Shown here one piece after another: positions 15,373 through 60,427 of a stretch of DNA of 64,000 nucleotides (the first letter of the stretch is position 1; each line of letters opens with the position of its first letter). Source of the DNA: Clostridia bacterium (GTDB taxonomy: Bacteria > Bacillota > Clostridia > Oscillospirales > CAG-272); assembly GCA_017623975.1 (NCBI GenBank), contig JAGANX010000037.1, forward strand, positions 310 to 64,309, read 5' to 3'. Under the pieces are notes generated by a model. The model was not told the origin of the DNA, did no database searches, and saw only the letters and a list, made by a program, of their open reading frames with translations. Position numbers and translations under genes: made by a program.

Positions 15373-15389
15373 TGGGACAGAGTGTCCCA
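15373..15389. promoter_or_regulatory. Candidate operator: 7-3-7 perfect palindrome TGGGACA-GAG-TGTCCCA
   Basis: Read directly. It starts 4 nt after the -10 hexamer and so overlaps the expected transcription start. Confidence 0.5.
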
Positions 15390-15408
15390 GTTAGTAAAGG
15401 AGATTATT

Positions 15409-16008: not shown

Positions 16009-16265
16009 TGGCGAAATATCAGCGTGTGCCCTTAAATGTTGATGCACTGTTTTTATCAGACGGTACTATAAAGCCGCGAAAAATCATCTTAAAGGACGAG
16101 GTTTTCACAATAGATAAGGTTATTTCGCACAAAAATTACTGCCCAAGAGTCGTACCGTGCGTAGCTCCTGTGGAATATACGGTGACGGTTGAGGGAGTAT
16201 CTAAAAAAATTTATTATGAGCCACACTCGAACATGTGGTTCTCGGTAAAGAGATATGAAAAATAG
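16008..16265 (+). CDS. Small hypothetical protein translationally coupled between the LexA-like and polymerase genes
   Basis: 85 aa. Its start overlaps the LexA stop (TAATG, 16006-16010) and its end overlaps the polymerase start by 11 nt. I recognise no motif. Confidence 0.55.
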   Translation: MAKYQRVPLNVDALFLSDGTIKPRKIILKDEVFTIDKVISHKNYCPRVVPCVAPVEYTVTVEGVSKKIYYEPHSNMWFSVKRYEK

Positions 16266-21844: not shown

Positions 21845-21847
21845 CTC

Positions 21848-23056: not shown

Positions 23057-23105
23057 TATTTGCATCCTCCAATTCTAAATTTTTTCATCTTCACGCGCAC
23101 CTCTC

Positions 23106-24101: not shown

Positions 24102-24122
24102 CGGTCTTTTTTGTCTCCTATA

Positions 24123-26861: not shown

Positions 26862-26906
26862 TTCATTTTCTCCTTATGAATGTATATTAATAATTTTGAA
26901 CGTATA

Positions 26907-28262: not shown

Positions 28263-28312
28263 TGTATCCTTTTGTTTACTTATATAGTCTTTTGTTACTA
28301 TCTCTGCCTTAT

Positions 28313-28347
28313 GTCTTTGCCTGCACCCATTGGGTGCCGGCAAAGAC
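28313..28347 (-). other. Intercistronic GC-rich stem-loop without U-run (between proteinase and lipoprotein genes)
   Basis: gtctttgcctgcaccca / tgggtgccggcaaagac form a 17-nt inverted repeat with one mismatch. No T-run follows on the minus strand. Confidence 0.5.
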
Positions 28348-28369
28348 AATTAAGCAGTAAACTAATCAA

Positions 28370-34300: not shown

Positions 34301-35884
34301 GTTGTAAACGATGATAGCGGCAGCACCTGCGTTTTGTGCAGCCTGTGCCTTTTCTTCAAAGGTAGTCGAGCCACGGCGAACAAGAGCTATCTTGCCCTTT
34401 ACGTCCATACCAAAGTAGTCAGCAGGACGTCCCGCACCCGGAACAACAACGTATTCAAGGTCAATAGACTCAGTTGAGCTTGCAGGCAAGCGGTCCTTTA
34501 AAAGCTCCTCAAAGAAATCCTTTTCCTTGCTGGCTGCGTTTGTAGCCTCAACAAAGTAAATGATAGAGCCGTTATACAAAATATAAGGTGTCTTTTTACC
34601 GTTGATAGATGCAACAGACATAGCACCCTCGTATGTGGAAGGAGAGCCAACTGTTGATGTATCAGGGTTAGTTGTAAGACCTAAGTTACCGTTTTTGTCA
34701 GAGCCGTATGCGGAGTTGTAGCTGTTAGAAGCCGCAACTATTAAGGAAATGCCCGCATCTCTAATCTTTTGATACACATTTCCGTTTACCGCTTCCTTAT
34801 CACTCTCACGGCTGAAACCGCAAGCGGTACCCAAGGACATATTGATTACGTCAACTTCAAGAAGAACACAGTCTTCAAGAGCAGACAAAATCCAAGATGT
34901 ACGTGCGCTCTCCTCAACATCGGAGAAGGTTTTCATAGCAACGATCTGTGCCTGTGGCGCAACACCTGTAATAACATCGTCCTTACCTGCGATAACACCG
35001 GAAACGTGCGTACCGTGGTTGTTATGTAATGAGTAAACATCAGAGTCCGCATCTGCATAGTCAAAGGCGAAGGGAACCTTGTCGCTCATATAAAGGTCAT
35101 CGGCAGTAACACCGTTCATATAGAACTCTGCGCGTGTTTCCTTAGCGGCGAGCAAATCCGCAATCATTTTCTTGGTCAAGCCAAGCTTTTCCCTGTTTGC
35201 AGTGAAGTTATCATCGGAAAAGGCGGTATGCGTATAGTCAAGACCTGTGTCAAGCACGGCAACAACCATGCCCTCACCCTGATACTTGAAATCAGCACTG
35301 TTGAAAATACCTGTGCTTTCATAGAAGTTTACCTGGTTTTCAACAAGCTGAGATTCACACTTTTCATAAACCTCACCAACAATTACCGTGGAGTCCTCGC
35401 CTATCGCCTCACAGGCAGCATCAAAGTCACCCGCTTGAATCAAGATTTCAAATCCACTAAAAATTGTGTTGTAAACTGCACCCTCTGTAAACTTGATACC
35501 CTTGTCCTTTAAAGACTTAATGATGTTAGCCTTTTCAGCACTTGCCAAGGACATAACCTTAATTGCCTCTTGGGAGGATGCAAACTCCGCCATGGACATA
35601 GCCTTATCCGACTCACCGTAAGCGTCCATAATAGCGGGCATTTCCATATCAATAATTATGGAAATTGTATCGGTGTTTTTAATAGTACTCGGTAGCTTTT
35701 GAACAACGTTACCATTTAAAAACTGCTCGATATTGGTTTTCAAATCTCCGTTATACTCGCTAAGGTAACCGCCAAGTGGCACTTTACCCGAAACAGCAGA
35801 GGTACAAAGCGAGATTAACATTGTGAACAGCAACAAAAGTGATATTGCGACTGTTGCTATTCTTGCGACTTTCTTTCTTCTCAT
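28370..35884 (-). CDS. Giant (~2504 aa) cell-envelope S8 subtilase with PA domain, Big_2-like domains, ~820-aa BspA-type LRR region and C-terminal TM anchor
   Basis: Start MRRKKVARIATVAISLLLLF (ATG 35884, downstream of the promoter at 35948-35976). Triad motifs: VLDTGLD (Asp codon 35249-35251), HGTHVSG (His 35006-35008), SGTSMACP (Ser 34034-34036). PA-like GKIALVRRGSTTFEEKAQAAQNAGA lies between His and Ser. LRR units span ~29180-31650. An S/T/P linker, TM and KLKKSVK tail end the protein. Confidence 0.85.
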   Translation of the reverse strand: MRRKKVARIATVAISLLLLFTMLISLCTSAVSGKVPLGGYLSEYNGDLKTNIEQFLNGNVVQKLPSTIKNTDTISIIIDMEMPAIMDAYGESDKAMSMAEFASSQEAIKVMSLASAEKANIIKSLKDKGIKFTEGAVYNTIFSGFEILIQAGDFDAACEAIGEDSTVIVGEVYEKCESQLVENQVNFYESTGIFNSADFKYQGEGMVVAVLDTGLDYTHTAFSDDNFTANREKLGLTKKMIADLLAAKETRAEFYMNGVTADDLYMSDKVPFAFDYADADSDVYSLHNNHGTHVSGVIAGKDDVITGVAPQAQIVAMKTFSDVEESARTSWILSALEDCVLLEVDVINMSLGTACGFSRESDKEAVNGNVYQKIRDAGISLIVAASNSYNSAYGSDKNGNLGLTTNPDTSTVGSPSTYEGAMSVASINGKKTPYILYNGSIIYFVEATNAASKEKDFFEELLKDRLPASSTESIDLEYVVVPGAGRPADYFGMDVKGKIALVRRGSTTFEEKAQAAQNAGAAAIIVYNNVSGDIKMNAGTITIPICSISQDDGELLAASKKGTIKISRTQTSGPFISDFSSWGPAPDLSIKPEITAHGGNILSAVTGGGYDRLSGTSMACPNMAGFTALLRQYVENEYEFIKNMPETTPEQKREKSKTINALVSCLTMSTADIMYNTNGLPYAVRKQGAGLANLVSASKTSAYIQTYDRLDGSVMDKTKIELGDDKDKTGVYNIKFAINNFGDTSLTYSLSATVMTEGVSETETVRGDTTVTEEGYLLNGAKFELVKVTNGTKDGDKVTVKGGTVAVVEAKITLSDADKKYLDESFANGMYVEGFITLDAVSGTDVDLGAPFLAFYGDWTKAPLFDTDYFETNKDELDDGISQDDKIMADAYPTRPIGGLYSDYVSYLGSYYFQQNPQDKVISASRDYIALSYSDETVHSFRFVWAGLLRNAAKIVVTITNDATGEVIFETVDYDVRKSYGDGGSIYPANIEVEFDTQDYDLPNNAQLSVKIEGFLDYGDGGADTNLKNTFEFPITIDYEAPVITDCEFFTEYDKELKKDRLFARVAVYDNHYTMALNFGYVRRATAEELAKDGYENLMESFESYLTPVYSTFNNTTYVEFELTDYVQTIKDKARNKNSFVVTAYDYALNMTTYEIGLPDEYVDFYFEESANETNYLSINQVYQLNPILYPNAETNPDNTTNPWKELIEYQSSNSGVVKVVNDKLVAVSAGNAWIVAKDPTSGQTQRFKITVLGVNDKDHPEYREYDKPVADIFDVVGYKTLKAYYYLNNDERDIGMTGDVKLFGGGFNLKMFPSESVELRTNFVPYLNGAWLTYESSNSNIVEIDEKGVVTAKAEGFASVTVRVVLEGKNTYFSETVDVEVKDPWIRSGPGLSHYFGLGGEVIVPADLNLTEISQYAFSNYDYIDKVEGIDEISEEDPNLTKVAFLGENTITKVVLPIGIEKIGPYAFAGLTALEEVVIPYTVEAIEYGAFYGCKKLKTISYMDEDGNIIGGTGLQNVQLINWAAFQDCDLRGKLVLDNARAIGDYAFAGNKNLVEVEIPKTLRSVGGYAFFGNEDLKSVTVHAENVKYGPYVFAYCKSLNDIETVDENGNKIVSINTAVIPQGAFYFCDSLTNITIGNDVNVIGEYAFAGAGIASFTVTSENASFKADSSKYILSKDGTELVIVAPTVKGEFKLDDANVTTIGVGAFAENKNITKVVIPSATKVGKYAFAECIKLESVTLGALEEIGDYAFFVTSIASHPSFDGLDAIGKYAFAYTNVGSVVIPNNVLVGEGAFSECEKLESITIGNDVTIELGAFMYNNRLDGRWSVSSYYKNGKNYYYPDYNSPLKQLTIGNNVVIGESAFMGAADLEAVTMGENIVIGNQAFYNSCALKAILDTSGANVGFKNVKSIGELAFSGDEQYVYADANLTNPMVVNGKYVFQYYGAAFEAIDLTNVESFAKGAFAYCTQLKDVALGEQTRAIPELAFYGCTKLENINLGKVETVGSNAFAGAESLANIDLSSATTVEDYAFTLGGATSVVLNPNGTNIGEGAFAYCPKLTSVQNLGASKEIASYAFAESGITKIDLTGAEVIGDHVFKKENTQGDLTAFDVEITLGEGLKSVGDNPFAFCKLQPFAQIGAYEFNGKEYQTVTLTFDISDTVKVINGSLYCKVNTGYELITYGGADANGYVTVAEDTVRISSYAFVGTNVETVVLPHSLDAIGHKAFFNCDSLTTVIFKSYEAPILEEQLDVAYYNSYDNIPGGGKYNLPLNNGEILVKDGLGIVDYYMWNVPSGMYYDVFFGANFMNHIGHIDRKLTMVRPSNGQNYETFILGQYFGKVIDGSISATDETLAAIAAIAKIPKNIRLSHEPLVVAAREAYNKIATRDQQALVADYSALVTAENKIQRLKDEQSGSGEQDKPSTPGSGDKPITPDTPSSGSTTTPSTNDSTVGSTPTVDSMGGAAPNAQGSNVGFVVVIIVLSVLVVCGTAFAVIYIVKLKKSVK

Positions 35885-35947
35885 TTTTCCAAATAGCCTT
35901 TCTATAATATACGTGTATAAATTATAATGATAAACATACGTGATACA

Positions 35948-35976
35948 TTTTAGCATATAAAGGTAGAAAATTCAAG
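35948..35976 (-). promoter_or_regulatory. Sigma-A-type promoter of the proteinase gene
   Basis: Minus strand reads TTGAAT, a 17-nt spacer, then TAAAAT with TG at the extended -10 position. Confidence 0.55.
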
Positions 35977-36310: not shown

Positions 36311-36339
36311 ATTGACAATTTAACTGAAATATGTTAAAA
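36311..36339 (+). promoter_or_regulatory. Sigma-A-type promoter of the CxxC-membrane-protein/polyferredoxin pair
   Basis: TTGACA (36311-36316), a 17-nt spacer, then TAAAAT (36334-36339) with an upstream TG. Confidence 0.6.
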
Positions 36340-36372
36340 TAGAATGGAATATTTTTAGAAAGGTAGTTATAT

Positions 36373-37275
36373 ATGTCGAAGGAAAGCTTGAAAAAGATTT
36401 ATTTGATATATGGCATAGTGCTTAGCGTGCTTTTGGCAGTTTTGTCTGTCTTGCTTGTGGTTATGTGTATTGACATTTACAAAAACGAGCCTGATTTGTT
36501 CACCCGTCAAAGCGTTTCAGAGCATTTTGCAAAAATTGCAGTTTTCGTCTATCTTACAATTGCAGTTATAATCGGTGGCGGTATTCTTTCAATCGTTTGC
36601 CCACTTGAAAAAGATAAATTGAAGGGCAGCGTAAAGGACGGCGTTGTTTTAAGACGACTTTCAAAAAAGCTTACCGTTATTAGTGATGAGGCGAGTGCTA
36701 AAATAGAAAAGCAACGCATTATCCGTTTTGCTATGATTATTGTCAGCATGGTTTTGGTAATCGGTGCTACTGTAAGCTCATTTATTCAAGTTCTCACCTC
36801 TTATGATGTTAATGCTGCTATAAACAAGGCGGTTATAAACGGTTGGCTAACTGTAACCTGGCATTTCTTAGCTCCCACCGCTTACCTAATAGTTACCGCT
36901 TACGTTTGTAAAAGAAGCATTAAGAAGGAGCTTGAAGTTGTTAAAGGCGAGCTTAAAAATGCAAAAACAGCGGGGGATGTGTCTAAAAAAGAAGATATCA
37001 CAGCTTCTTGTCAAGCAGATACAGTGGATGACAGATGTCAAGAGCAAGATGAAAAAAATCTTGGTCCCGTTACCAAATTAACAAACGAGCTTGGCGAAAC
37101 AGTTGAGCGAATTAAAACACCTAAAAAATGGCACAAAATCGCTTATTATTCAGTTTTCGGCATCCTTGCCTGCACCGCCGTTACCTTTATCATAGTAGGT
37201 TTAGCAAACAACGGTGCCTCTGAGGTTGTAAGAAAAGCAATTGCAATTTGTAAAGAATGTATAGGAATGGGGTAA
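36373..37275 (+). CDS. 5-TM membrane protein ending in a C-terminal CxxC (AICKECIGMG); function unknown
   Basis: 300 aa: four N-terminal TM helices, a ~75-aa charged loop with two Cys, a fifth TM, then the tail ...RKAIAICKECIGMG. Its stop is 3 nt before the next ATG. Confidence 0.65.
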   Translation: MSKESLKKIYLIYGIVLSVLLAVLSVLLVVMCIDIYKNEPDLFTRQSVSEHFAKIAVFVYLTIAVIIGGGILSIVCPLEKDKLKGSVKDGVVLRRLSKKLTVISDEASAKIEKQRIIRFAMIIVSMVLVIGATVSSFIQVLTSYDVNAAINKAVINGWLTVTWHFLAPTAYLIVTAYVCKRSIKKELEVVKGELKNAKTAGDVSKKEDITASCQADTVDDRCQEQDEKNLGPVTKLTNELGETVERIKTPKKWHKIAYYSVFGILACTAVTFIIVGLANNGASEVVRKAIAICKECIGMG

Positions 37276-37278
37276 ATT

Positions 37279-39384
37279 ATGAACAAAGTACTAAAAAAAT
37301 TAAAAAGCCTTATTCCCTCTAAGCGTAAGCTTATTCAGCTTTATTCGGCACTTTTATTTAATGCTAACATCAAGGGCTTCTTCACAGGCGATATATATAG
37401 AGGCTCTACTAAAAAAATGTGTGCCCCGGGCATTAACTGTTATTCTTGCCCGGGTGCTATTGGTGCATGTCCCCTTGGCTCACTTCAAAACGCCCTTGGC
37501 ACAAGCTCCCACGGTACGATTTTTTATGTAATCGGTATTTTACTTCTATACGCATTACTTTTAGGCAGATTTATTTGCGGCTTTTTGTGTCCCTTCGGGC
37601 TTATACAAGAGCTGCTTTACAAAATCAAAACTCCTAAGCTTAAAAAGAACAAGGTTACAAGAATTTTATCTTACTTAAAATATGTAATTCTCGTTTACTT
37701 TGTTGTCATCATCCCTGTTCTTTATTTACTGTACTCAAACAATTCCGTTCCCGTTCCCGGCTTTTGCAAATACATATGTCCGGCAGGAATTTTGGAGGGT
37801 GCCTTTGGCTACCTATCCCACCCAAGCAACGCGCAGGATATGGCGGCACTTCGCTCCTTATTTACTTGGAAATTCTGTTTAACTGTTTCCATTATCTTAG
37901 GCTCCGTGTTCATTTTCAGGCTATTCTGCCGTTTTCTTTGCCCACTTGGCGCGCTTTACGGTCTTTTCAACCACTTCTCTGTTTTCGGCATCAAGCTTGA
38001 AAAAAGCAAGTGCATAGATTGCGGTCTTTGTGTAAGCAAATGTAAGGTAGATATACGCCACGTTAATGACCACGAATGTATAAACTGCGGAGAATGTATT
38101 GAGGTTTGCCCAACGCAAGCAATTTCTTGGAAGGGCTCAAAGCTTATTTTGCCACCAAATGAAATTGAAAACCCAATCCCTGTGACTGATGATAGCCCTG
38201 AGGATATTAAGCAATTGGCAGAGGAGCAAAAGCAAGAGTTTTTAGCAAGGAACGAAAAAATCAAAAAGCGCAACAAGATACTAAAAATAGTTGTATCCTC
38301 CCTTATGCTGGCGCTTTTAGCCTTTGCTTTAATTTACTATAACTTTATTGATGTACCAAAAACCAATGACAATGAAAACGATAATAACAACACTCAAAAC
38401 GAAACTCCGCTACCGCCTGACGAGGGTAATGATGTCGGTAACATTGTACAAAAGCAGGAGCTTTTGATATTCAACGGTGACGGTGTTAGCGAAGCTGTTA
38501 TTGACCCAACAAGCTACAAGGGTAAGATTGTAATCGTTTCCTTCTGGAATTACGATAGCAACAATTCTTCCTTAGAGGCTCTTGACAAAATTGCAACAGA
38601 ATATAAAGAAAAAGCGGTTGTAATTGCTATACATACAAGTGATAATTTTGACGGTGCTTGTGATTATATTAAGGCAAATTACCAAAATTCTTCCGTTATT
38701 TTTGCAAAGGACTATGCAAAGGATGAAAAGGAAAACATCTGCTTTGCCGCTTACGGTGGTGAAAATGGCAAGCCTTTAACCCTTCTGCTCAACGAAGCAA
38801 GCGTAATCGTTTCTTCCGAAAAAGCAATTATAGGCTATGATGCGCTTAAAGCTGCGGTTAAAAAAGAAATAAGGAACGGTGATGCAAGCAACCCACCTGT
38901 TGTTGGCAACCAGGTTGGTAACCTTTGCCCATCTTACCCAATGGATATCTTTGATGAAAACGGCTTTACAGGTGAAAAAATTGACCCTGTGAAAACCGGA
39001 AAATTAACAATTATCAACTTCTGGGGTACTTGGTGCGGCGGTTGTGTTGCTGAGCTTCCTTACTTTGACAGAATTGCCGGCGAATATAAGGACAAAATTA
39101 ATGTTATTGCCGTACACACTCACTCATTGTTCGATACTGCCGCAGGCTATGTAGAGCAATATTACAAGGACTCCTCTATCATCTTCACAAAGGACAATCC
39201 CATTGACCCTGATGATGAATATTCCGCTGAGGTCTTTTTCAAGAAATTAGGCGGTGGCGATGCTTATCCTATCACTATAATTCTTGATGAAAACGGTGTT
39301 ATTATTAAAACAATTTTCAGTGCTTTAACTTACGAAGACCTTAAAAATGTAGTTGATACTGAGCTTAACAAATACCAAGATTAA
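37279..39384 (+). CDS. NapH-like polyferredoxin membrane protein fused to an extra TM and two TlpA/redoxin-like thioredoxin-fold domains
   Basis: 701 aa. Membrane Cys motifs: CYSCPGAIGACPLG, CGFLCPFG, CKYICPAG, CRFLCPLG. Two ferredoxin motifs: CIDCGLCVSKC and CINCGECIEVCP (38011-38111). Next come the TM ILKIVVSSLMLALLAFALIYY and an N/D-rich linker. Trx-like domain 1 has a degenerate motif FWNYDS (38542-38559). Domain 2 has an intact WCGGC (Cys-Gly-Gly-Cys codons 39034-39045). Confidence 0.8.
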   Translation: MNKVLKKLKSLIPSKRKLIQLYSALLFNANIKGFFTGDIYRGSTKKMCAPGINCYSCPGAIGACPLGSLQNALGTSSHGTIFYVIGILLLYALLLGRFICGFLCPFGLIQELLYKIKTPKLKKNKVTRILSYLKYVILVYFVVIIPVLYLLYSNNSVPVPGFCKYICPAGILEGAFGYLSHPSNAQDMAALRSLFTWKFCLTVSIILGSVFIFRLFCRFLCPLGALYGLFNHFSVFGIKLEKSKCIDCGLCVSKCKVDIRHVNDHECINCGECIEVCPTQAISWKGSKLILPPNEIENPIPVTDDSPEDIKQLAEEQKQEFLARNEKIKKRNKILKIVVSSLMLALLAFALIYYNFIDVPKTNDNENDNNNTQNETPLPPDEGNDVGNIVQKQELLIFNGDGVSEAVIDPTSYKGKIVIVSFWNYDSNNSSLEALDKIATEYKEKAVVIAIHTSDNFDGACDYIKANYQNSSVIFAKDYAKDEKENICFAAYGGENGKPLTLLLNEASVIVSSEKAIIGYDALKAAVKKEIRNGDASNPPVVGNQVGNLCPSYPMDIFDENGFTGEKIDPVKTGKLTIINFWGTWCGGCVAELPYFDRIAGEYKDKINVIAVHTHSLFDTAAGYVEQYYKDSSIIFTKDNPIDPDDEYSAEVFFKKLGGGDAYPITIILDENGVIIKTIFSALTYEDLKNVVDTELNKYQD

Positions 39385-39387
39385 AAT

Positions 39388-39416
39388 AAAAATCTCCGTG
39401 TCAAACGGAGATTTTT
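39388..39416. terminator. Intrinsic terminator (A-run/hairpin/T-run) after the polyferredoxin gene
   Basis: aaaaatctccgt-gtcaa-acggagattttt. Confidence 0.8.
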
Positions 39417-39424
39417 AATTCATT

Positions 39425-39458
39425 AAAATAGAGGCTTTTTTCAAAGCCTCTATTTTTT
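39425..39458. terminator. Second back-to-back intrinsic terminator serving the convergent lipoprotein operon
   Basis: aaaatagaggcttt-tttc-aaagcctctatttttt lies 5 nt from the minus-strand stop at 39463. Confidence 0.8.
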
Positions 39459-39462
39459 AATT

Positions 39463-42306
39463 TTATTCAACTGTTACAGTAAACTCGTACTCGCCTGCAT
39501 TTTCTGCGGAAATTGCAAAGTAAATCCAGTTGCCCATTGTGTCCTCAATTGTAAGTGTATTGTTTTCTACATCTACAAGAGTTGAGCCAGCCATTGACCT
39601 TTCAACCAAGCAAAGATTAGCCTCGCCATTTAATGTAATTGTCAGCTTGCAGCCCTCGTTTGCGGAGAATACATAGTATGTGATTCCGTTTACATCTGCG
39701 GTATATGTACCGCTTTCTGTCACTTCAATAGCATTTTCCTCGGTTGTGCCCTGTGCAAGCTCCTCTGATGTATATTCAAGCAAGATGCTTTCGTTAGCAC
39801 CGTTCTGTGTGGAAACAGCTATTGTATAGAACATATTATTTGTTTCAAATGTATATGTAGCCTTGTCGCCAGCTACTGTCGACATACCTATTGGAGTGTC
39901 GTTTTCGTCAATAATTCCGTCCTCATTTGTGTCAGCATTATAAACCTTAATTACTGCGTTTGCGCTATTTGCGGAAATTGTAAATTTAACGCTTTGACTT
40001 GGACGAACATAAAGTGTGTACCAAACTGTACCGTTTTCCTTAACCTCTGCGGTTTCCTTCATCTCATCTACTGTATCAAAATCAAATGGAGCATCAGCCG
40101 CGCCTGTCTTAATACGGGTAAGTGAGTATGAGCCGTAGTTAGACATTTCAAGAGCAATTTCTTCAAAGTTGGAGGTATATCCCTCGGGATATTCAACCTT
40201 AACTACATAATTATCCGCAAACACAACGTCTGCAAATACTACGCGTCCGTTCTCTCCTGTTGTGCCTCTTACTACCTCTGTTAATTCATCACCGTTTTGC
40301 TTGTACAGTATAACAACAATATTGCTTGCTACATCACCGTCTTTGTTTACATAAATTGTGTAATCAACTTTTTCTTCGCCAAAATTAAATTTTACGGAAG
40401 TAGCAAAGTCAGCACCTACATCAAATCCATTTACGGCAATCAAAACCGTTTCTCCCTTTGAAAGTGGGAACAAGTGCTTGCCATCATCTGTAACAAGACC
40501 TACTCCGTCGCCGTCAAAGTGAACATCAACGCTTGCATCGGTTGTTACGCAAAGAGTGCCGTCTTCCTTTGCTGTGTATGAATAGTAAATTGTTGTATCC
40601 TTTTCAATTGTAGCTTCCTCTGTGTATCCGTCAGCACCCACCTTATCAGTTACATCAAACGGGTTATTGTGTGTACCCGGAGCTTTCATTGAAACGTCAA
40701 CGCTTTGGGCTTCGTCTGCTGTGATAGAGAAAATTGATATTTGTCCTTTTGCCTCGGAAAGATTAAATGTACCGTTAACTATTTGTGAAAGATCATCGTT
40801 ATAATCAAGCTTAACGCCTGTTGAAACAATGCTAACAACCTTTCTGTGTCCGTTAGGAACAGCAAACCAAACTGTTTGACCCGCTTCAAGGTTCAACTGT
40901 ACCTCACCGAGCAATATGATAGGAGATTCCTTGCTTGCACCCGGAATCTTGTTTGTTATCTTGATTTTACCAACAGCTGAGTCATTATAAACGAAGTATG
41001 CAGGCTCTATATAAACGTTATCAGCCCTTAAAACTGCTGTATAGTATCCGTTTGGTGCTACAAAGGTAGCAATACCGTTTTCACCTGTTACAATAGTTTC
41101 AATGATCTCATCATCTACATTATAAACATCAATTACATAGCCGGCAAGCTCAGTTGACACACTAACGGTATATGTAATTTCGGAGTGAGTAACAACCGTT
41201 ACCTCAATCGTCGTAGAGTCGCTTGTGAAATGGAATTTACCGTCATCACCCGCACCAATTACCTCATATGCAGGGCTTACGATAATTACTTCAACGCTGT
41301 AATCGCCTTCACCTAAATTTTCAAAGGTAGCAATGCCGTTTTCGTTTGTTTTAACAACATCTTCAAGGAAGCCGTCAGCATAAAGCTTAACCTGTGCGCC
41401 AACAACAGCATCACCAAACATTGTGGCAACCCTTACAGAATATGTTGCCTTCTTTTTAGCAATAATTGTGCAGCCGTACTCGCCGCTTTCAAATGTTGCT
41501 TGTGCTTGGCTTAAATCATACGCACCACCGCTTAAAACCTCAGTAACCCTTGCACTCAATTCGCCGCCGTGCAATGTGATAACGCCTGTTACCATACCGT
41601 CCGGGTCGGTTATAAGTGAGTCAGCATAAGTATTCTCACCCATTTGGAGCTGAATTTTAGCACCGTCAACCGCTTGTTCTTTATCGTCAAATACATTAAT
41701 TACAACCCTTTGAACGTAAATTACAAGCTCACGTGAGCCTTCGTCAAAATATACATATTCGCTTGAAGCAATAAAATCATCAACGCCTGTGATGGAGTTA
41801 ATCTTTGCCTTCAATTGACCCTCTTTGAGGTCATAAGTTCTTGTACCAACTCCGTCTGCGCCTGTTTTGATAGGCTGAAAGAAGCAGGTTTCGCCTTGAC
41901 AAATTTGAATAGCTGCGCCGTTTACACCCTTGCCTGTTTCACGGTTAATAACCGTAACCTTTACAAGATTTGGGTCATCCTGTGGCTTTTGGTCATCAGG
42001 TGGAGTTACAGTTGAGCTTCCTGCACCTGAATTATCTGTGCTTGGAGTCGTTGTAGAGCTGTTTGTACCCGGGGTGTCTGTACCGGAATTGCTTGTAGAA
42101 TTGTCTGTGCTTGAATTATCTGTATTGCCGGGGTTTTGGCTTGGTGTAGTAGAGTTGCCTGTTGAACCGCTGTTATCAGTTGAACTGCTTGCTCCGCTTT
42201 GTGAGGAGCCTGCGCCACCGTCACCGTTACAGCTACATGATGCAAATACTGCAAGCATGCCAAGCAAAAGCATTAAAGTAGCCATAAGTATAGCAATTTT
42301 CTTCAT
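39463..42306 (-). CDS. 947-aa tethered lipoprotein with four prealbumin/CarboxypepD_reg-like repeats and several PPC-like beta-sandwich modules; function unknown
   Basis: Lipobox FASC and an ~80-aa S/T/N/G low-complexity tether. Repeats resemble VKVTVINRETGKGVNGAAIQI... and YSVRVATMFGDAVVGAQVKLY...NENGIATFENLGEGDYSVEV. Later modules start with N-P-F / A-P-F-D motifs. Confidence 0.7.
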   Translation of the reverse strand: MKKIAILMATLMLLLGMLAVFASCSCNGDGGAGSSQSGASSSTDNSGSTGNSTTPSQNPGNTDNSSTDNSTSNSGTDTPGTNSSTTTPSTDNSGAGSSTVTPPDDQKPQDDPNLVKVTVINRETGKGVNGAAIQICQGETCFFQPIKTGADGVGTRTYDLKEGQLKAKINSITGVDDFIASSEYVYFDEGSRELVIYVQRVVINVFDDKEQAVDGAKIQLQMGENTYADSLITDPDGMVTGVITLHGGELSARVTEVLSGGAYDLSQAQATFESGEYGCTIIAKKKATYSVRVATMFGDAVVGAQVKLYADGFLEDVVKTNENGIATFENLGEGDYSVEVIIVSPAYEVIGAGDDGKFHFTSDSTTIEVTVVTHSEITYTVSVSTELAGYVIDVYNVDDEIIETIVTGENGIATFVAPNGYYTAVLRADNVYIEPAYFVYNDSAVGKIKITNKIPGASKESPIILLGEVQLNLEAGQTVWFAVPNGHRKVVSIVSTGVKLDYNDDLSQIVNGTFNLSEAKGQISIFSITADEAQSVDVSMKAPGTHNNPFDVTDKVGADGYTEEATIEKDTTIYYSYTAKEDGTLCVTTDASVDVHFDGDGVGLVTDDGKHLFPLSKGETVLIAVNGFDVGADFATSVKFNFGEEKVDYTIYVNKDGDVASNIVVILYKQNGDELTEVVRGTTGENGRVVFADVVFADNYVVKVEYPEGYTSNFEEIALEMSNYGSYSLTRIKTGAADAPFDFDTVDEMKETAEVKENGTVWYTLYVRPSQSVKFTISANSANAVIKVYNADTNEDGIIDENDTPIGMSTVAGDKATYTFETNNMFYTIAVSTQNGANESILLEYTSEELAQGTTEENAIEVTESGTYTADVNGITYYVFSANEGCKLTITLNGEANLCLVERSMAGSTLVDVENNTLTIEDTMGNWIYFAISAENAGEYEFTVTVE

Positions 42307-42376
42307 TTCTTATACCTCCTAAGGATTCTTACAAGTGTAATTACACTATCTTAAATTGTCACCGTATTTTGTCACT

Positions 42377-44143
42377 TTAACCGATATATACAACAAAGTT
42401 AAAGTAGATAGCTGTTTGTGCATCTTCGCCCATATATATAATCTCGAAGTTTTGGTTAGCATTAACAACAACGCTAAGTGTACCCATGCCACTTTCAGCT
42501 ACATATTCTATACCGTCATTTGCTATGATTTTTATATTCTCTGCGTTTTTAATAGTGATAGTTGCTTTTGTTGTAGTTCTAAACAAAACGCTTACGTCCT
42601 TTTCAAGCAACGCTGCGTATGTTTTTATGCTTTCACTGCCGTCCGCAGTTAAGGGAGCAGGCTTATTTTGTGTGCCTAATGCTTTTCGATTTTCATATGC
42701 ACAGGCAAAAAGCCATGCGTTTTCTTCAACAACGCTTGCTGCTTCATCTCCAAATATATGAAACTCACTATTCAAGTCGAACCAGCCGTTATGCTCACCA
42801 ATATTCTTTATTGCCTGTGCAAGCTGCTTATTTAACGGATACATTCCATTTGTACCGCATAGCTCTGCGTACTGATAAAGCATATCATTATAGCTTTCTT
42901 TTGCAATAACAGCTCCGCTTTCATCATAGAAAACCTTACCCAGTCTGCCTGTTTCACACATAGCAATAAATGACGGCAAATACTTATAAATCGTTTCCGT
43001 GCTTGTGGAGCTTTCAACAACCGCGCTGGAAATTCTTATGTAAATTATAGGTCCGTCAACAGTATTCAAATGATAATATCCATCATTTTCATTATATACA
43101 ACTGTTAAGCCTTTGTCAGTAACATCGAAATCAACAAATTCGCTGTTAACGTAGCTATCAACCTTTATAGCATTTTTGTCAGCTTGAACATCTGTCCAAG
43201 GCATATTTACCGTGGCATTACCGATTCTTTCAATTTTAAGAACACATCCTGACTCTGTAAAGGAACGAATGCCTATAACAATTTGTGTTGTACCACCCGG
43301 ATTACCGATATTAACGCCCTCGTTTTTAACTTCAAGCTCAAAGGCGCCATCCTTCACTTCAATAGGGCAGGATGCCAAAACATTGTGCGGTGAACCGTAG
43401 TAGCCAAGCGTTACAGCCCTTTTCGCCTCATAGCTAACCCTATAAATACCGCCACGTGTAGGGGTAAATAAGAAATATGAGTTTGCGGGGCGGTCGATTG
43501 TTACATAGGTTGCGCCCTCCTCTACTTGTACTGCATTATATGGGACATGGGTAATACCGTCAGTATCATAAACATAAATTTCTTCTTTGTTGGTTTCATC
43601 TGCATAGCTGCAAAGAGACACTGTTGCCTCAGGCTCCTCAGCTGTTAAAATGCAGGCACTTTTATCATAGTGGAGCTGACCCTCCATTGGCATAACCTCA
43701 AAGGTGTATTCACCTGCTTCAAGCTTAAAAGAAGCATTACCGCGTATCATAGGCACTTGGCTAACTTCTTCTCCATCAGCATTAAACACGCTAACGATAA
43801 CTGTAAAATCAGGCTCGTTACCAAACGCATCAACTGCTTTTACCTTATATGTTATCACTTTTGGTGTTTCTTGTGGTTTATCATCGTTTGTGCCATCATT
43901 TTTGCTATCATCTGTACTGCTTGGCAAGGAGCTCTCTGTATTCGAATCCCCCGTACCAATACTACCGCCAACACTTGAATTATCGCCGCCTTGTGAGCCC
44001 GATGTATCCGTTTGCGCGCCATCGCCTGCTACACTTGATTGAGAGGATTGTGTTGAGCCATCCTCTCCGCCGCAAGATGCAAAGACTAAGATAACGCTAA
44101 AAATCAAGCACAAAAGCGTTAATATAGTAAAAATCTTCTTCAT
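42377..44143 (-). CDS. 588-aa tethered lipoprotein sharing a cryptic DGYYH...YP(L/V) module with the 1137-aa neighbour; function unknown
   Basis: I prefer the start MKKIFTIL (ATG 44143, GGAG RBS 6 nt upstream). Lipobox FASC, an S/T/D tether, one prealbumin-like repeat, then NENDGYYHLNTVDGPIIYI ... MYPLNKQLAQAIKNIGEHNGW. Confidence 0.7.
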   Translation of the reverse strand: MKKIFTILTLLCLIFSVILVFASCGGEDGSTQSSQSSVAGDGAQTDTSGSQGGDNSSVGGSIGTGDSNTESSLPSSTDDSKNDGTNDDKPQETPKVITYKVKAVDAFGNEPDFTVIVSVFNADGEEVSQVPMIRGNASFKLEAGEYTFEVMPMEGQLHYDKSACILTAEEPEATVSLCSYADETNKEEIYVYDTDGITHVPYNAVQVEEGATYVTIDRPANSYFLFTPTRGGIYRVSYEAKRAVTLGYYGSPHNVLASCPIEVKDGAFELEVKNEGVNIGNPGGTTQIVIGIRSFTESGCVLKIERIGNATVNMPWTDVQADKNAIKVDSYVNSEFVDFDVTDKGLTVVYNENDGYYHLNTVDGPIIYIRISSAVVESSTSTETIYKYLPSFIAMCETGRLGKVFYDESGAVIAKESYNDMLYQYAELCGTNGMYPLNKQLAQAIKNIGEHNGWFDLNSEFHIFGDEAASVVEENAWLFACAYENRKALGTQNKPAPLTADGSESIKTYAALLEKDVSVLFRTTTKATITIKNAENIKIIANDGIEYVAESGMGTLSVVVNANQNFEIIYMGEDAQTAIYFNFVVYIG

Positions 44144-44162
44144 ATAATTCTCCATTTACATA

Positions 44163-44191
44163 ACTCCCGCCAAGGAAGGCACGGCGGGAGT
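44163..44191 (-). other. Intercistronic GC-rich stem-loop without U-run
   Basis: actcccgcc (44163-44171) and ggcgggagt (44183-44191) form a 9-bp stem with an 11-nt loop, between the 1137-aa stop and the 588-aa start. Confidence 0.5.
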
Positions 44192-44200
44192 CAAGCTAAG

Positions 44201-47200
44201 TTACTGTTGAGCCTTATCTACCTCAATAAGTCTATATACTTCCGCTGTAACTATATCTACCAAGGATCTTTCAACTGCAACAATTGTCCAGTGGTCAAGC
44301 GCTTCATAAAGCTCTTGAACCAATGCATCAATCTCGCCCGCAATGTCCTCGCTTGCAACATCAGCACTGTCAAGCAATGCATTAAGGTCTGCAAGCTTTT
44401 CATCAACACTCTTCGGTGCAGTCAGTGGTCTATAATAATAGCAAAGCTTTGTCCAAGAATCTTTTACGCCTTCAAATGTGAATTTATCCATCAATGCTTG
44501 AAGCATTACTCCAAGCTCCTTATCAACAGGAACACAGCCCTGGCGTTCAGGATAAATAACCTCTGTGCTTGTTCCGTCTGTACCGTCATCAAGCTTGTCA
44601 AGATATTTTCTCATAGCTTCGGTGTAATCAGGGCCATTACCGTGGTAAATACCCTTTATAATATCTTCCATTTTGTACAATTCCCAGTTTGCATCAAAAT
44701 TGTCGCCCCAAAGCTCTCTTAAAGCTGCCTTACCGCCCTCTTCATAGTAATTTTTGAAATATACGTATGCTTCCCTATCCGTCTCTGTCATACGCATATC
44801 AAATGCGCCTTCTTCAATAAGCGTTTCAAGAGATTGTTTGCCGAAAATATTAGTTGTAAAGTGGAAATCTGCATACACTATTGAACCCAGCTCACCATTT
44901 GGCAAGAGGTGACAATAGTAGCCGTATCTTGGGTCATCTTCATCCTCGCAAAGCTTAACGTCAATGCCCGTTGCAATAATTTCTTGGCTAATTTCATCGT
45001 AAGAGAATACACCCGGTGATGCTTCTTCAAACACATCAAAGGTTTCGCCTACATATTTAAGGTCAAATGTAAATGTACCTGCTGCATAAACGTCATAGTA
45101 CGCAATATCAATGTAGTATTCAACGCCTTCTTCAAAGTAGCCTATCATTGTACAGTTTGTAAGGTCTCTTTCATAAACACCATTGCCGTCCGGGTCAACA
45201 AGAAGCTCAGGACAGTATCTCTCACCTGTGAAGGAATCAAGATAAAGAACTCTGTCGCCGCCGTTTTCATTTACCCACTGCTCAAAGCTACCTATGAACA
45301 CCCATCCGTTCACCTCTTGTGTAGCGTTAGATGTAATACGGTAAACGCCTGATTTTGTAGGAACGAACTTGTAAAGGAAGCCTCTTGGCATAATGATTTG
45401 TGTATATGTTACTGTGTTTTTAAAGCCCTCCTCGCCCTCTAATGTTTCAACAGCATCAAATGCGGAGAATGTTGTAAGACCGCGAATTGGGTCCTCTAAC
45501 TGAGAGGCTGTACCGTATGCCTCATAGTAAGAGCAAAGCTGGAGCCAAGTATTTTCATCATAACCAAATGCTGCTTTCTGCTTAGCAAATTCATCAAGAT
45601 AGCCTTTAAGCTCCTCTGTTACAGGACAATATCCATAGAGCTTAGAGTTAGACGCATAATTACAGTACATAATGAATGAATTGTAAACGTCCTTACCGTT
45701 GTAAATAAACTCGCCTTGGTCAACCAAAACGGTTGTAACGGTAAATCTTTCTTCCTCAGGGAAGAGCAAGGAAAGCTGTGTGTTGGAGCCTAAAAGACTT
45801 GCCAAAAGAAGCGGACCGTCCTTTGTGCCAACGTGGTAGTAGCCATCCTCTTCATTAAACACAACGTCAACGTAGGTTTCAAAGAAGATATCGTCATACT
45901 TGTCAGTTGCTGCATATCTTGGAATATAAGTTTCAATTTCCAATTCCTTTGCATCAACTACCTTAAAGTTGTCAAGATAAACTCTATCGTCGCCATCCAT
46001 ATCGCTTTCATCCTTGATGTAGCAGAAGGCAACCTCATAGGTTCCGTCCTGTGTTGCTACCCATGGGCAACAGGTTTGCCATGGCTCTTGCAGCAAATTA
46101 CCGTCATCGTCCTCCATTGGTCTTCCGGAAATTGTGTAAATATCCTTACCGTCAACCAAAACATAGAGAACGTCATAAAGTCTTTGCGTTGAAGCATAAT
46201 AGTCAAACACAATAGCCTCACCGGCTTTAAGCTCTACATCAACGTAAAGAATGCAGTAAGAGTTGTCTAAATCTACGTTTGTAGATGCCAAGCACTTTTC
46301 TCCATCCTTTTCGTAAACAATAAACGGCCATGCGTATTCAGCATCCTCACCATCGGTTTCAGGTCTGAATGTTATGTTAATATCACCGTTTACAACAGCA
46401 TCCTTAATTTCATTTTCAGGGGACATTTCAATGTCCGGCTTTACCATAGGAGAAAGATCGTAGATTGATGAGTAAAGCTCCTGCTCATAGTTACTTGATA
46501 CATAGTGCTCGAATGCGTTAAAGAAATATCTTTCACCTAAAACGCCGCCCACCTGTATCATAGAAATAACGCCATAACGGTCAATCATTACAGAGCATGG
46601 GTTTACTGTAAAGCCAAATGCTTCTTGAATACCGCTTACATCCTTAACCATTGGGAAGGTTAATGCACAACCGTCCTCTGTATAATAGCCCGGCTTTGCA
46701 AATTCTTCCATAAAATCTCTTATGTTCTTGTCATTATCGGCACCGTATGCGTTAATACCGATAATTTCAATATCGTCACCGTATTTTTCATAAGCTGCTT
46801 GAATGTATGGGAATTCCTCAATACAGTAAGTACAGGTTGTGTACCAGAAGTTAAGCATAACAGCCTTTTTGCCGTTTGCTAAAAGGTCGGAGAGCTTAAC
46901 CTGCTTTGTTTCAATCATACCTGTGTCCTTGTTGTAAACGTATGCAGTAAGCTCAAAGTCATACATTACATCCCCAAGTCCAAGTTGAAGCCCTGAAAAA
47001 TCATTGTCCTCATTGGGAACAATTTCCGTTTTAACCTTGATTTCAACGCCTGTTGTACCAAGCTCATAGAAATCATCATGAACGTAACCGGCAGGGAAAT
47101 TCTCTACATAAACGTATTTAGCATCCTCAGGATACGCTTTCAAAACGACAGAACCGTTTTCCGCTGTTTTACCCCAAGCGGCTGTGCCTGAGCCAAGCTC

Positions 47201-47614
47201 CGCTTCGCTTTGGATAAATACACTTACATTTGGAATAGGCTTGCCTGTATTTTCATCAATGATGAGAATGGTGTATTCTGATTTGTTTGGCTTCGTGCCT
47301 GTACCGTCCCCACTATCAGATGGCTTGGAGCTTGATGTGGAGTTGTTTGTTGAGCCACTGTCAGGTGTGCTTGGTACAGTACAGCTACTGTCACTTGAAG
47401 CACCACTATTGTCAGAGCTGCCTGTTGATGGAGTGGTATCGGTTGAGCCACCGCTATTATCCACAGAGCCGGAGCCGCCAACAGAGCTATCAGGATTAGA
47501 CTGGGAAGAATTATCGGAATTACCCGTTCCTGAGCCGCAAGCGGACAACATCAGCATTACTGCTGTTACTACTAATGCAAGTAAGATTAGTAGCCTTTTG
47601 TTCGTCTTTTTCAT
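44201..47614 (-). CDS. 1137-aa tethered lipoprotein with an embedded TlpA-like CxxC thioredoxin domain and two copies of the DGYYH-type module
   Basis: Lipobox LSAC, an S/T/G/D tether and a prealbumin-like repeat. The Trx-like stretch is KAVMLNFWYTTCTYCIEEFPYIQAAYEKYGDDIEIIGINA (CTYC codons 46823-46834). Later: NEEDGYYHVGTKDGPLLL...CPVTEELKGYL and RYGYYCHLLPNGELG...VPVDKELGVMLQAL. Confidence 0.75.
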   Translation of the reverse strand: MKKTNKRLLILLALVVTAVMLMLSACGSGTGNSDNSSQSNPDSSVGGSGSVDNSGGSTDTTPSTGSSDNSGASSDSSCTVPSTPDSGSTNNSTSSSKPSDSGDGTGTKPNKSEYTILIIDENTGKPIPNVSVFIQSEAELGSGTAAWGKTAENGSVVLKAYPEDAKYVYVENFPAGYVHDDFYELGTTGVEIKVKTEIVPNEDNDFSGLQLGLGDVMYDFELTAYVYNKDTGMIETKQVKLSDLLANGKKAVMLNFWYTTCTYCIEEFPYIQAAYEKYGDDIEIIGINAYGADNDKNIRDFMEEFAKPGYYTEDGCALTFPMVKDVSGIQEAFGFTVNPCSVMIDRYGVISMIQVGGVLGERYFFNAFEHYVSSNYEQELYSSIYDLSPMVKPDIEMSPENEIKDAVVNGDINITFRPETDGEDAEYAWPFIVYEKDGEKCLASTNVDLDNSYCILYVDVELKAGEAIVFDYYASTQRLYDVLYVLVDGKDIYTISGRPMEDDDGNLLQEPWQTCCPWVATQDGTYEVAFCYIKDESDMDGDDRVYLDNFKVVDAKELEIETYIPRYAATDKYDDIFFETYVDVVFNEEDGYYHVGTKDGPLLLASLLGSNTQLSLLFPEEERFTVTTVLVDQGEFIYNGKDVYNSFIMYCNYASNSKLYGYCPVTEELKGYLDEFAKQKAAFGYDENTWLQLCSYYEAYGTASQLEDPIRGLTTFSAFDAVETLEGEEGFKNTVTYTQIIMPRGFLYKFVPTKSGVYRITSNATQEVNGWVFIGSFEQWVNENGGDRVLYLDSFTGERYCPELLVDPDGNGVYERDLTNCTMIGYFEEGVEYYIDIAYYDVYAAGTFTFDLKYVGETFDVFEEASPGVFSYDEISQEIIATGIDVKLCEDEDDPRYGYYCHLLPNGELGSIVYADFHFTTNIFGKQSLETLIEEGAFDMRMTETDREAYVYFKNYYEEGGKAALRELWGDNFDANWELYKMEDIIKGIYHGNGPDYTEAMRKYLDKLDDGTDGTSTEVIYPERQGCVPVDKELGVMLQALMDKFTFEGVKDSWTKLCYYYRPLTAPKSVDEKLADLNALLDSADVASEDIAGEIDALVQELYEALDHWTIVAVERSLVDIVTAEVYRLIEVDKAQQ

Positions 47615-49149: not shown

Positions 49150-49178
49150 TTGACTTTTCCTTAATTGTGCGTTATACT
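49150..49178 (+). promoter_or_regulatory. Sigma-A-type promoter of the hydrolase pair
   Basis: TTGACT (49150-49155), a 17-nt spacer, then TATACT (49173-49178). It lies downstream of the track's GTG/ATG at 49165, which argues for the ATG at 49213. Confidence 0.55.
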
Positions 49179-49212
49179 ATATGTAACTATATCTATGTAT
49201 AGGAGGATATTT

Positions 49213-51321: not shown

Positions 51322-51355
51322 TTTTTACAAAAGGCATTTAAAAGGAGAAAACGAA

Positions 51356-60164: not shown

Positions 60165-60194
60165 ATATTTTCTCCTTGCGTTATTGTACAAAAT

Positions 60195-60420
60195 AAAAAA
60201 CGCCCCGACAAAAGCTGTCAGGGCGCAAAATACGCGGTACCACCTGAATTCGTATCAAAAATACGCACTCTATACTCTATAACGTGAGTTGCCCGTTGAT
60301 GGCTACTACTATTTCGCCGTCACCGCTCCAAAGCTACTTCACAGACATTTGCCTACTGTCTTGCACCAATCGACAGCTCTCTGTAAGGTTATCTTCTGTT
60401 ACTCCTCTTTTTCCTTGCGT
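60195..60420 (-). promoter_or_regulatory. T-box riboswitch leader of valS (candidate specifier GUA = Val)
   Basis: Minus strand carries AGAGGAGTAAC and CAGAGAGC...TGGTGCAAG (stem I elements), then GAAGTAG (GTA = rc of 60335-60337). The T-box core AGGTGGTACCGCG is the rc of 60233-60245. The terminator is CGCCCTGAC-agctttt-GTCGGGGCG plus TTTTTT (60195-60225). Confidence 0.85.
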
Positions 60421-60427
60421 TTAGACT

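Follow-up and report, generated by a model that had tools for sequence, protein, structure and literature searches.

A candidate iron-sulfur membrane conduit for extracytoplasmic thioredoxin-fold domains in a Clostridia bacterium

A locus at positions 36,311 to 47,614 of a 64,000-nucleotide stretch from an uncultured gut Clostridia bacterium (contig JAGANX010000037.1; the whole stretch is referred to below as the window) raises the question of how thioredoxin (Trx)-fold domains outside the cytoplasm might be reduced by a route other than CcdA/DsbD. Thiol chemistry outside is known to be linked to the cytoplasm either through Cys relays, as in DsbD/CcdA, or through quinone-linked oxidases such as DsbB and VKOR. 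The locus codes for two adjacent membrane proteins, here called A and B, and for three large lipoproteins, C, D and E. From sequence comparison and structural models, it appears somewhat probable (roughly 0.57) that A and B constitute a membrane electron conduit reducing extracytoplasmic Trx-fold domains, an iron-sulfur (Fe-S) counterpart of CcdA/DsbD.

The genes form two convergent units, A then B on the plus strand and E, D and C on the minus strand, with intervals of 45 nucleotides between E and D and 70 nucleotides between D and C. The features of the locus are as follows.

36312–36340, plus strand: promoter-like site upstream of A-B (TTGACA, 17 nucleotides, TAAAAT, extended -10 TG)
36373–37275, plus strand: gene A, polytopic membrane protein of 300 residues
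37279–39384, plus strand: gene B, 701 residues, starting 3 nucleotides past the stop codon of A
37279–38178, plus strand: residues 1–300 of B, NapH-like membrane Fe-S module (Pfam, NCBIfam and Cys motifs)
38278–38334, plus strand: transmembrane (TM) helix of B, residues 334–352 (Kyte-Doolittle 2.59; inside a long helix, 308–357, of the AlphaFold2 model)
38417–38883, plus strand: residues ~380–535 of B, degenerate Trx fold with the Cys-less active site FWNYDSNNS
38896–39381, plus strand: residues ~540–701 of B, TlpA/ResA-like Trx with WCGGC (FWGTWCGGC; C586 and C589, nucleotides 39034–39045)
39387–39456: convergent intrinsic-terminator-like hairpins between B and C (39425–39456 on the plus strand, 14 pairs; 39417–39387 on the minus strand, 13 pairs)
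39463–42306, minus strand: gene C, 947-residue lipoprotein with SpaA/CarboxypepD_reg immunoglobulin (Ig)-like domains, co-directional with E-D
42377–44155, minus strand: gene D, 592-residue lipoprotein with a DGYYH module common to D and E
44201–47614, minus strand: gene E, 1137-residue lipoprotein with a Trx domain

A first-pass annotation, made from the letters of this DNA, had described three Trx folds on B and E (two with an intact CxxC and one degenerate), a membrane Fe-S module, a CxxC-tailed membrane protein, about 2700 residues of surface lipoprotein, convergent units with back-to-back terminators, and a window lacking Msr, cytochrome-maturation and DsbA-like genes. Each of these elements was recovered here. 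The three folds lie at the positions given for them, the Fe-S module and the tailed protein are B and A, respectively, and hairpins on the two strands separate the units. C, D and E, 2676 residues in all, each begin with a signal peptide and a lipobox Cys, and a long S/T/G/N-rich linker of low complexity follows. No DsbD/CcdA (PF02683), Msr, DsbA or cytochrome-maturation Pfam family was found among window open reading frames (ORFs) of at least 150 residues, which were taken as genes after exclusion of ORFs nested in longer ones. The CxxC tail of A is no side element; nothing in the locus is better conserved, and the core is A plus B.

Gene A ends in a last TM helix (residues 260–278) and a 22-residue tail with a CxxC (C293 and C296; nucleotides 37249–37260), its C-terminus reading ...AIAICKECIGMG. 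This end matched NCBIfam NF040920, 'CD1871A family CXXC', across profile positions 2–38 of 38 (E 7.6e-7), with a score of 28.9 bits against a cut-off of 32. The tail family can be written as a TM helix plus ...KAINICTECIGLG-COOH, the NCBIfam 'CD1871A' pattern. In the neighbourhood sample, which comprised 80 species-representative loci of B relatives, an ORF with the tail motif (TM helix followed by NGGxxDVLxKAxxICTECIGLG-COOH) stood directly upstream of B in 79. The tail of the window protein, CKECIGMG, departs from the CTECIGLG consensus of its relatives (79/80), and the remainder of A is poorly conserved among the species loci. In other lineages the tail occurs as a stand-alone mini-protein of 33–88 residues. 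A is cut down to a helix and tail of 40–53 residues in Mogibacterium, Solobacterium, one Lachnospiraceae metagenome-assembled genome (MAG) and two more metagenome contigs, and this reduced form still abuts or overlaps the module gene. One relative, P0312, carries the NCBI name CD1871A family; the mini-protein genes are frequently uncalled or misnamed 'thioredoxin' in public annotation. Because A and B are separated by 3 nucleotides, the tail precedes B in nearly every locus and the tail is kept when A is minimal, A and B are an obligate pair and the conserved core of the locus. Ahead of their last helix, A and its relatives carry K/R, and their tails are neutral to acidic; this charge distribution predicts that the CxxC tail lies outside.

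The first 300 residues of B matched Pfam Fer4_5 (PF12801) in two stretches with 46.3 bits (cut-off 22), and Fer4 and Fer4_7 also scored above their cut-offs. This module contains 18 Cys. Eight belong to two ferredoxin-type [4Fe-4S] motifs (CxxCxxCxxxCP; C245–C255 and C267–C277), and the other ten form a Cys4 motif (C48-x5-C54-x2-C57-x6-C64-P, NCYSCPGA) and three CX3CP pairs (C100/C104, C163/C167 and C217/C221). All 18 were invariant in each of the 81 sequences aligned. Against the NapH equivalogs TIGR02163 and NF007013, B scored 71.5 bits (cut-off 213) and 54.2 bits (cut-off 234), well under the values for membership in NapH, and the NCBIfam profiles for NapH/MauN and ResA/StoA/TlpA were likewise matched below threshold. 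No nap genes were found among the scanned window ORFs, and nos genes are likewise absent from the locus. By these profile matches B is a member of the Fer4_5 (NapH-like, COG0348-type) superfamily and not NapH itself. Instead of the earlier label 'polyferredoxin', the protein is better named a NapH-like membrane Fe-S protein with extra Cys motifs.

Hydropathy analysis of B gave strong TM helices at residues 81–99, 133–151, 194–212 and 334–352 and a weak one at about 15–36; the helix at 334–352 stands between the ferredoxin domain and the Trx domains. The loop at 100–132 holds seven K+R. In NapH, the N and C termini and the Fe-S centres are reportedly cytoplasmic, a finding ascribed to Brondijk et al. 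in 2004. On the positive-inside rule (a basic N-terminus, the K/R-rich loop 100–132 and the ferredoxin domain) together with the NapH precedent, C100/C104, C217/C221 and the two clusters are predicted to face the cytoplasm, and the prediction for the Cys4 motif and C163/C167 is the outer face. The Trx domains would be taken outside by the fifth helix of B.

B resembles NapH, NosR and PceC in the CX3CP motifs of Fer4_5 at the ends of TM helices and in a C-terminal cytoplasmic domain with two [4Fe-4S] clusters. It differs from the NapH-like proteins in that its outside partner is a Trx fold and not a flavin mononucleotide (FMN)-binding domain, NapG or a reductase, and in having the additional invariant Cys4 (NCYSCPGA), a third CX3CP at the predicted outer face and an obligate CxxC-tailed partner. 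E. coli NapH is not known to have these extra Cys motifs. A flavinylation survey (PMC8238504) has put forward NapH-like PF12801 proteins as modules of transmembrane electron transfer serving extracytosolic FMN domains; it describes no Trx-coupled form. A sequence search of the PDB with the membrane part of B returned generic ferredoxin motifs only (9sfi_O, a polyferredoxin) and no NapH-like structure. Relatives of full-length B (E<=1e-5) exceeded 5000 clusters at 90% identity, the best 120 of which all had the Trx fusion. Most derive from MAGs of gut and rumen Clostridia, and their annotation goes no further than '4Fe-4S binding protein', 'redoxin' or 'redoxin family protein'. The module alone (HMMER search with residues 1–300 of B) defined 417 clusters at 50% identity with E<=1e-30, in several architectures.

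Both Trx domains of B showed the Trx fold and order of secondary structure in the AlphaFold2 model, with block-mean predicted local distance difference test (pLDDT) values mostly above 88. The degenerate and active domains, 35% identical (E 2e-29), are tandem duplicates. PDB matches of the Trx domains of B and E included ResA, StoA and Etrx, and the CxxC of the active domain of B was present in all 79 full-length relatives. Most relatives of B have one Trx domain (about 515–540 residues) and some have two active ones; the Cys-less first domain of the window protein may be a docking or spacer domain. An intact CxxC with a membrane anchor or lipobox, as in TlpA, ResA and Etrx, is found in the second Trx domain of B and in the Trx domain of E, both modelled at block-mean pLDDT mostly above 88; the first Trx domain of B lacks the CxxC.

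Residues 573–690 of B matched the AhpC-TSA, Redoxin and Thioredoxin domains, AhpC-TSA and Redoxin with scores above the Pfam cut-offs. A peroxiredoxin reading of the AhpC/TSA matches was ruled out, as the active sites are CxxC motifs of the TlpA/ResA type. A broader alternative is that A and B reduce a non-protein substrate, be it a metal (Cu/Fe) in the manner of CcoG, a peroxide or a small disulfide such as cystine, with E unrelated or a binding accessory. The AhpC/TSA family match, the automatic name 'peroxiredoxin' on one E relative and a weak Fer4_18 (CcoG-type) match in B would fit this, and gut anaerobes presumably need defence against O2 and peroxide. We consider it improbable, as the CxxC is that of thiol-disulfide oxidoreductases with NCBIfam matches to ResA, StoA and TlpA, no peroxidatic-Cys motif of the peroxiredoxin type was seen on reading the sequence, no FixG_C domain is present and the conserved partner is itself a Trx-fold protein.

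Under the conduit model, a cytoplasmic low-potential donor, most plausibly ferredoxin, would reduce the two ferredoxin-type clusters of B. Electrons would then pass through sites built from the CX3CP pairs at the inner face (C100/C104 and C217/C221) and on to the Cys of the outer face, namely C48/54/57/64, C163/C167 and the CxxC tail of A. There, one-electron Fe-S chemistry would be converted to two-electron thiol/disulfide chemistry, the tethered WCGGC domain of B would be reduced, and this domain would in turn reduce clients, the genetically preferred one being the Trx domain of E (CTYC). The beta-sandwich and DGYYH modules of E could then aim at a surface or external substrate. The ten extra Cys of B and the two of A could ligate more clusters, form a redox-active disulfide beside a cluster, or do both. 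Ferredoxin is the probable donor, since Trx-type disulfides would need a stronger reductant than menaquinol and many such Clostridia rely chiefly on ferredoxin.

Electrons could in principle run the other way, A-B acting like DsbB or VKOR to re-oxidise Trx-fold proteins at the surface, which would then form disulfides in the lipoproteins and in a neighbouring S8 protease with leucine-rich repeats (LRRs; described below). The secreted neighbours are rich in Cys, and VKOR-Trx fusions are a precedent for the joining of a membrane oxidase to a Trx domain. This direction of flow seems very improbable, given that the Trx domains are of the TlpA/ResA/Etrx type, which are reductive families, that no quinone-type or other high-potential acceptor is evident, and that low-potential ferredoxin-type clusters would be poor electron sinks for a disulfide-forming catalyst.

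The conduit model draws its closest comparison from DsbD, CcdA and DipZ, in which a membrane protein powers Trx-fold domains on the outside, either fused to it, as in DsbD gamma and DipZ, or carried on lipoproteins of their own, as with Etrx and ResA. A-B differs in that the locus lacks the polytopic PF02683 core with its two essential Cys in TM helices, the membrane part being a NapH-like Fe-S protein with its CxxC-tailed partner, and in that the proposed electron source is an Fe-S chain where theirs is cytoplasmic thioredoxin and a two-Cys relay. From the 80 species loci, polytopic ORFs of 170–330 residues with at least five hydrophobic segments, lying no more than 10 kb from B, were collected; none of the 19 obtained belonged to the DsbD family. 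One of the 80 loci, L071, encodes a TauE/SafE-family membrane protein (13840–14562) about 2.3 kb downstream of B; among the polytopic neighbours it alone may be a distant relative of CcdA-type transporters.

Distant relatives of the module join it to thiol-redox partners in other ways. In P0502, the same Fe-S module is followed by a Trx domain (WATSCGPC) and by a C-terminal DsbD_N-like region (E 8.5e-5) that contains YQSCNESSCFIGE, at the position of which E. coli DsbD-alpha has YQGCADAGFCYPPE. The P0502 gene is preceded by a 43-residue ORF ending ...KAITICLECIGIG. Right next to the stand-alone modules of ~295 residues (L171 and L172) stand the mini-protein and a small Trx lipoprotein encoded on its own, and in Mogibacterium an additional Trx-like gene lies beside the mini-protein/module pair. 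The arrangements at these loci are, for L170 (5846–11685), the 43-residue CxxC mini-protein, P0502 and a 1212-residue PQQ-like beta-propeller protein, which may be a P0502 client; for L172 (4178–5888), a Trx lipoprotein (188 residues, CGYC), an uncalled mini CxxC ORF and the 295-residue module; and for L171 (1165–2786), the mini-protein, the module and a Trx-like lipoprotein interrupted by a stop codon, either a pseudogene or an assembly error.

Gene E, the proposed client, has a disordered linker at residues 27–108 (disorder spans 20–108 in its AlphaFold2 model, mean pLDDT 85.3), followed by an Ig-like domain (112–200), the Trx domain (214–372), a beta-sandwich (~400–560) and the DGYYH ... 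W.KLCYYY module (560–1137). An AhpC-TSA/Redoxin domain was matched at residues 214–357 above the Pfam cut-offs, with an intact CTYC in FWYTTCTYC (nucleotides 46823–46834). In Foldseek, the best matches to E were the DipZ/Rv2874 ectodomain structures 2hyx and 5cyy (E 2.7e-10, probability 1.00, ~390–400 columns), at a TM-score of 0.36 and a root-mean-square deviation of ~18 A. The low TM-score may reflect a different relative orientation of the domains. DipZ is a CcdA-family electron transporter whose ectodomain has a Trx-like domain and, after it, a carbohydrate-binding module (CBM) (PMC7479077, citing Goldstone et al. 2016). No CBM was matched by Pfam in the beta-sandwich of E.

The Trx domain of E also matched the pneumococcal Etrx structures 4hqz and 2yp6, and ResA as well, which followed DipZ in the Foldseek list. 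The analogy drawn earlier with the pneumococcal CcdA-Etrx-MsrAB2 pathway was thus apt as far as the Trx-fold surface lipoprotein goes, the Etrx-like fold being all that the two have in common. The Etrx system has been described (PMC3914529); the present window lacks CcdA and MsrAB, E is six times larger and carries a CBM-like domain and a 580-residue module, and the membrane donor would be an Fe-S protein. No Pfam or PDB sequence match was obtained for the beta-sandwich of E or for its C-terminal 578 residues, for the latter even with a 16-sequence profile, and Foldseek with the whole E model, dominated by the Trx domain, gave nothing for the function of this module. Within it C694 and C1027 are invariant, and C515 and C1058 of E are nearly so. 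E has fewer database relatives than B.

The family-specific DGYYH ... W.[QK]LC[SY]YY module occupies 44204–45937 on the minus strand in E (residues 560–1137) and residues 202–498 of D, the last motif occurring twice in E. Residues 352–498 of D align with 584–705 of E (E 1e-7), and D holds two segments shared with E in reverse order relative to E.

Relatives of B at 59–73% identity were set aside as synteny evidence, because in them the whole neighbourhood, including unrelated flanking genes, is kept and simple colinearity makes them uninformative. The full-flank set consisted of 41 species loci having 8 kb or more on either side of B. An E-like gene, of either 900–1200 residues or a short form of 590–680 residues, was found within 10 kb of B in 25 of them (61%), always with an intact CxxC; any second CxxC Trx-fold protein was present near B in 26. 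By identity of B, E-like genes were distributed as follows.

B identity 30–42%: E-like gene in 9 of 11 loci
B identity 42–46%: E-like gene in 5 of 10 loci
B identity 46–50%: E-like gene in 5 of 13 loci
B identity 50–70%: E-like gene in 6 of 7 loci

The link was strongest in the most distant bin, where the S8/LRR neighbour is missing in all but one locus. At least four arrangements of B and E were seen. E lies downstream and convergent in the window; downstream with the S8/LRR gene moved to the far side in L013, L021, L029 and L052; upstream on the same strand as B in L051 (Anaeroplasma) and L055 (CAG:307); and upstream and divergent in, for example, L071 and L077. Metagenome contigs were searched in reverse with non-Trx motifs specific to E (DGYYHVG and SWxKLCYYY); after de-duplication, seven E clusters had 8 kb or more of flank, and B stood beside E in five of these. 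The conserved synteny for which the first-pass annotation had asked, between the Fe-S/Trx fusion and a Trx-bearing giant lipoprotein, was thus observed in both directions, through rearrangement and divergence. Its reading of the locus as one without CcdA and with an Fe-S module instead was backed by the DipZ-like E, by P0502 and by the lack of a DsbD-family gene among the polytopic ORFs scanned near B. Its list of members stood in part: E is often linked, D is so sometimes (a D-like gene in 9/41 loci) and C is not (a C-like gene in 4/41), C being probably a passenger and not a conserved member, and the S8/LRR protease, which lay outside the coordinates it had considered, is a frequent neighbour in closer relatives. 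The DipZ-like E, the P0502 fusion and the unfused Trx neighbours of the module appear to be independent pointers to a CcdA/DsbD-like role.

Several findings weigh against the conduit model. The first TM helix of B is weakly hydrophobic, so it is the positive-inside rule and the precedent of NapH that put the Cys4 motif at the outer face. In the AlphaFold2 model of B the membrane part has a pLDDT of 40–65, falling below 50 at residues 25–66 and 156–165; low values over Cys-rich loops are what cofactor-binding segments would be expected to give, and they were not counted as evidence. The DsbD_N match of P0502, at 23 bits, is under the Pfam cut-off of 25. The scans for CcdA/DsbD covered the window and the neighbourhoods of B, and a CcdA may be encoded elsewhere in the genome. 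A-B and E-D-C are separate transcription units, and no shared operator was found in the promoter regions of A and E, which have only AT-rich 9–10-mers in common, consistent with chance. E is also not obligatory, since a second Trx protein is missing within 10 kb of B in 15 of the 41 full-flank loci, and among the E loci L096 and L106 are true exceptions, B being absent from their 6–10 kb flanks. Finally, the same module is fused to an Rrf2 domain in P0498 and preceded by HTH_36 in P0419.

These last two proteins suggest membrane-tethered redox-sensing regulators built on the module of Cys4, three CX3CP and two [4Fe-4S] motifs, and A-B could by extension be a sensor or signal transducer that reports on redox or metals outside the cytoplasm, its Trx domain being the sensing head. 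Such a role is not readily reconciled with B, which has no output domain and no regulator conserved beside it, and the WCG[GP]C motif, the tandem active Trx domains of many relatives and the DsbD_N-like fusion fit catalysis or electron delivery; we regard a sensor as scarcely probable.

A further alternative is that B serves only its own Trx domain, for some housekeeping task, while E is reduced by a conventional CcdA encoded elsewhere, their adjacency reflecting a shared surface-protein island. The convergent units with terminators between them, the lack of a shared operator, the loci without a second Trx protein near B, the absence of E from L005 and L010, where B has two intact Trx domains, and the limited reach of the CcdA scans are all compatible with two such independent systems. 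This is nevertheless judged unlikely, as the B-E link holds across four or more arrangements of order and strand and is still seen at 34–42% B identity, with the rest of the island gone, the reverse search from E leads back to B, and no DsbD-family gene was found among the scanned ORFs beside E-like genes in these loci. In addition, if a genome of 2–3 Mb has about one E-like gene, a rough estimate of the chance of finding it within 10 kb of B is ~1%, against the 61% observed.

The chemistry proposed for A-B at the outer face recalls, by analogy, ferredoxin:thioredoxin reductase (FTR) and heterodisulfide reductase (Hdr). In these enzymes one-electron Fe-S donors reduce a disulfide next to a cluster; both are soluble or peripheral, and cytoplasmic or plastidial, whereas the A-B reaction would sit at the outer membrane face. 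Neither A nor B gave a Pfam match to the FTR catalytic subunit or the CCG domain of HdrB, and no sequence relationship was detected. A stronger form of the conduit model, in which A-B is a new class of transmembrane disulfide reductase with an Fe-S chain (the 18 Cys of B and the CxxC of A) spanning the membrane and FTR-like chemistry at the outer face, is put forward tentatively and may well not hold. The logic of A-B is akin to that of DsbD/CcdA with TlpA/Etrx partners, and it could be categorically new if the Fe-S disulfide-reductase chemistry holds.

This stronger form, if true, would provide a CcdA/DsbD-independent means of powering surface thioredoxins in ferredoxin-based anaerobes. An Fe-S conduit with a Trx domain would be a further solution beside the known routes, tying surface thiol redox to the ferredoxin pool of strict anaerobes, and as a compact two-gene unit A-B hints at how bacteria keep or make surface thiols under oxidants or open disulfide-rich substrates. 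The family is large and is concentrated in gut and rumen Clostridia. In the literature searched, no description was found of the combination of a CxxC mini-protein, a Cys-rich NapH-like module, a Trx domain and a DipZ-like Trx lipoprotein, and nothing on CD1871A, on C. difficile locus tags or on 'NapH-like' together with 'thioredoxin' beyond the flavinylation survey (PMC8238504).

The neighbour of A on its upstream side is the protease mentioned above.

28370–35956, minus strand: S8 subtilase of 2528 residues with a PA domain and BspA-type LRRs, membrane-anchored, divergent from A

It has nine BspA-type LRR stretches and N- and C-terminal TM helices. It adjoins A-B in 17 of the 41 full-flank loci, nearly all of them with a B of 46% identity or more, keeps its linkage in the rearranged loci L013, L021, L029 and L052, and is a possible client of A-B. 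The protease is part of a surface/peptide-acquisition run (19402–35956, minus strand) with an M26_N-like lipoprotein (480 residues) and an Opp-type ATP-binding cassette importer whose SBP_bac_5 protein is unusually long (912 residues). Relatives whose B is 46% or more identical keep the protease and M26-like pair beside A-B, rearranged loci included. Under the stronger form of the conduit model, disulfide-rich external or surface proteins would possibly be reduced beside a giant surface protease and a peptide importer; with an S8/PA/LRR protease, an M26_N-like lipoprotein and an Opp importer as neighbours, such reduction could, speculatively, aid proteolysis.

The promoter-like site upstream of A-B is the top-scoring site of its region, with 11 of 12 consensus matches, and is identified by consensus match only. 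The 45-nucleotide E-D gap contains a G+C-rich hairpin (CTCCCGCC ... GGCGGGAG) at 44160–44195 with no T-run behind it, which could be a processing, stability or attenuation element inside the E-D-C unit. An Rfam scan gave no riboswitch or leader close to the A-B/E-D-C locus. Farther away in the window, a T-box leader (RF00230, 146 bits) was found at 60216–60424 on the minus strand; the gene immediately downstream of it (57540–60191, minus strand) codes for a class I tRNA synthetase that has a Val_tRNA-synt_C domain.

Three large ORFs of 718, 677 and 702 residues, at 49165–53317 (plus strand) and 10778–12886 (minus strand), had no significant Pfam match. The 718-residue ORF has a weak Glyco_hydro_cc match only, and its relatives keep their place downstream of a GT2 gene in several related loci. 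At 15382–17487 on the plus strand, a Peptidase_S24 (LexA/UmuD-like) gene is followed by a Y-family DNA polymerase (IMS), and the two look like an SOS-type mutagenesis pair.

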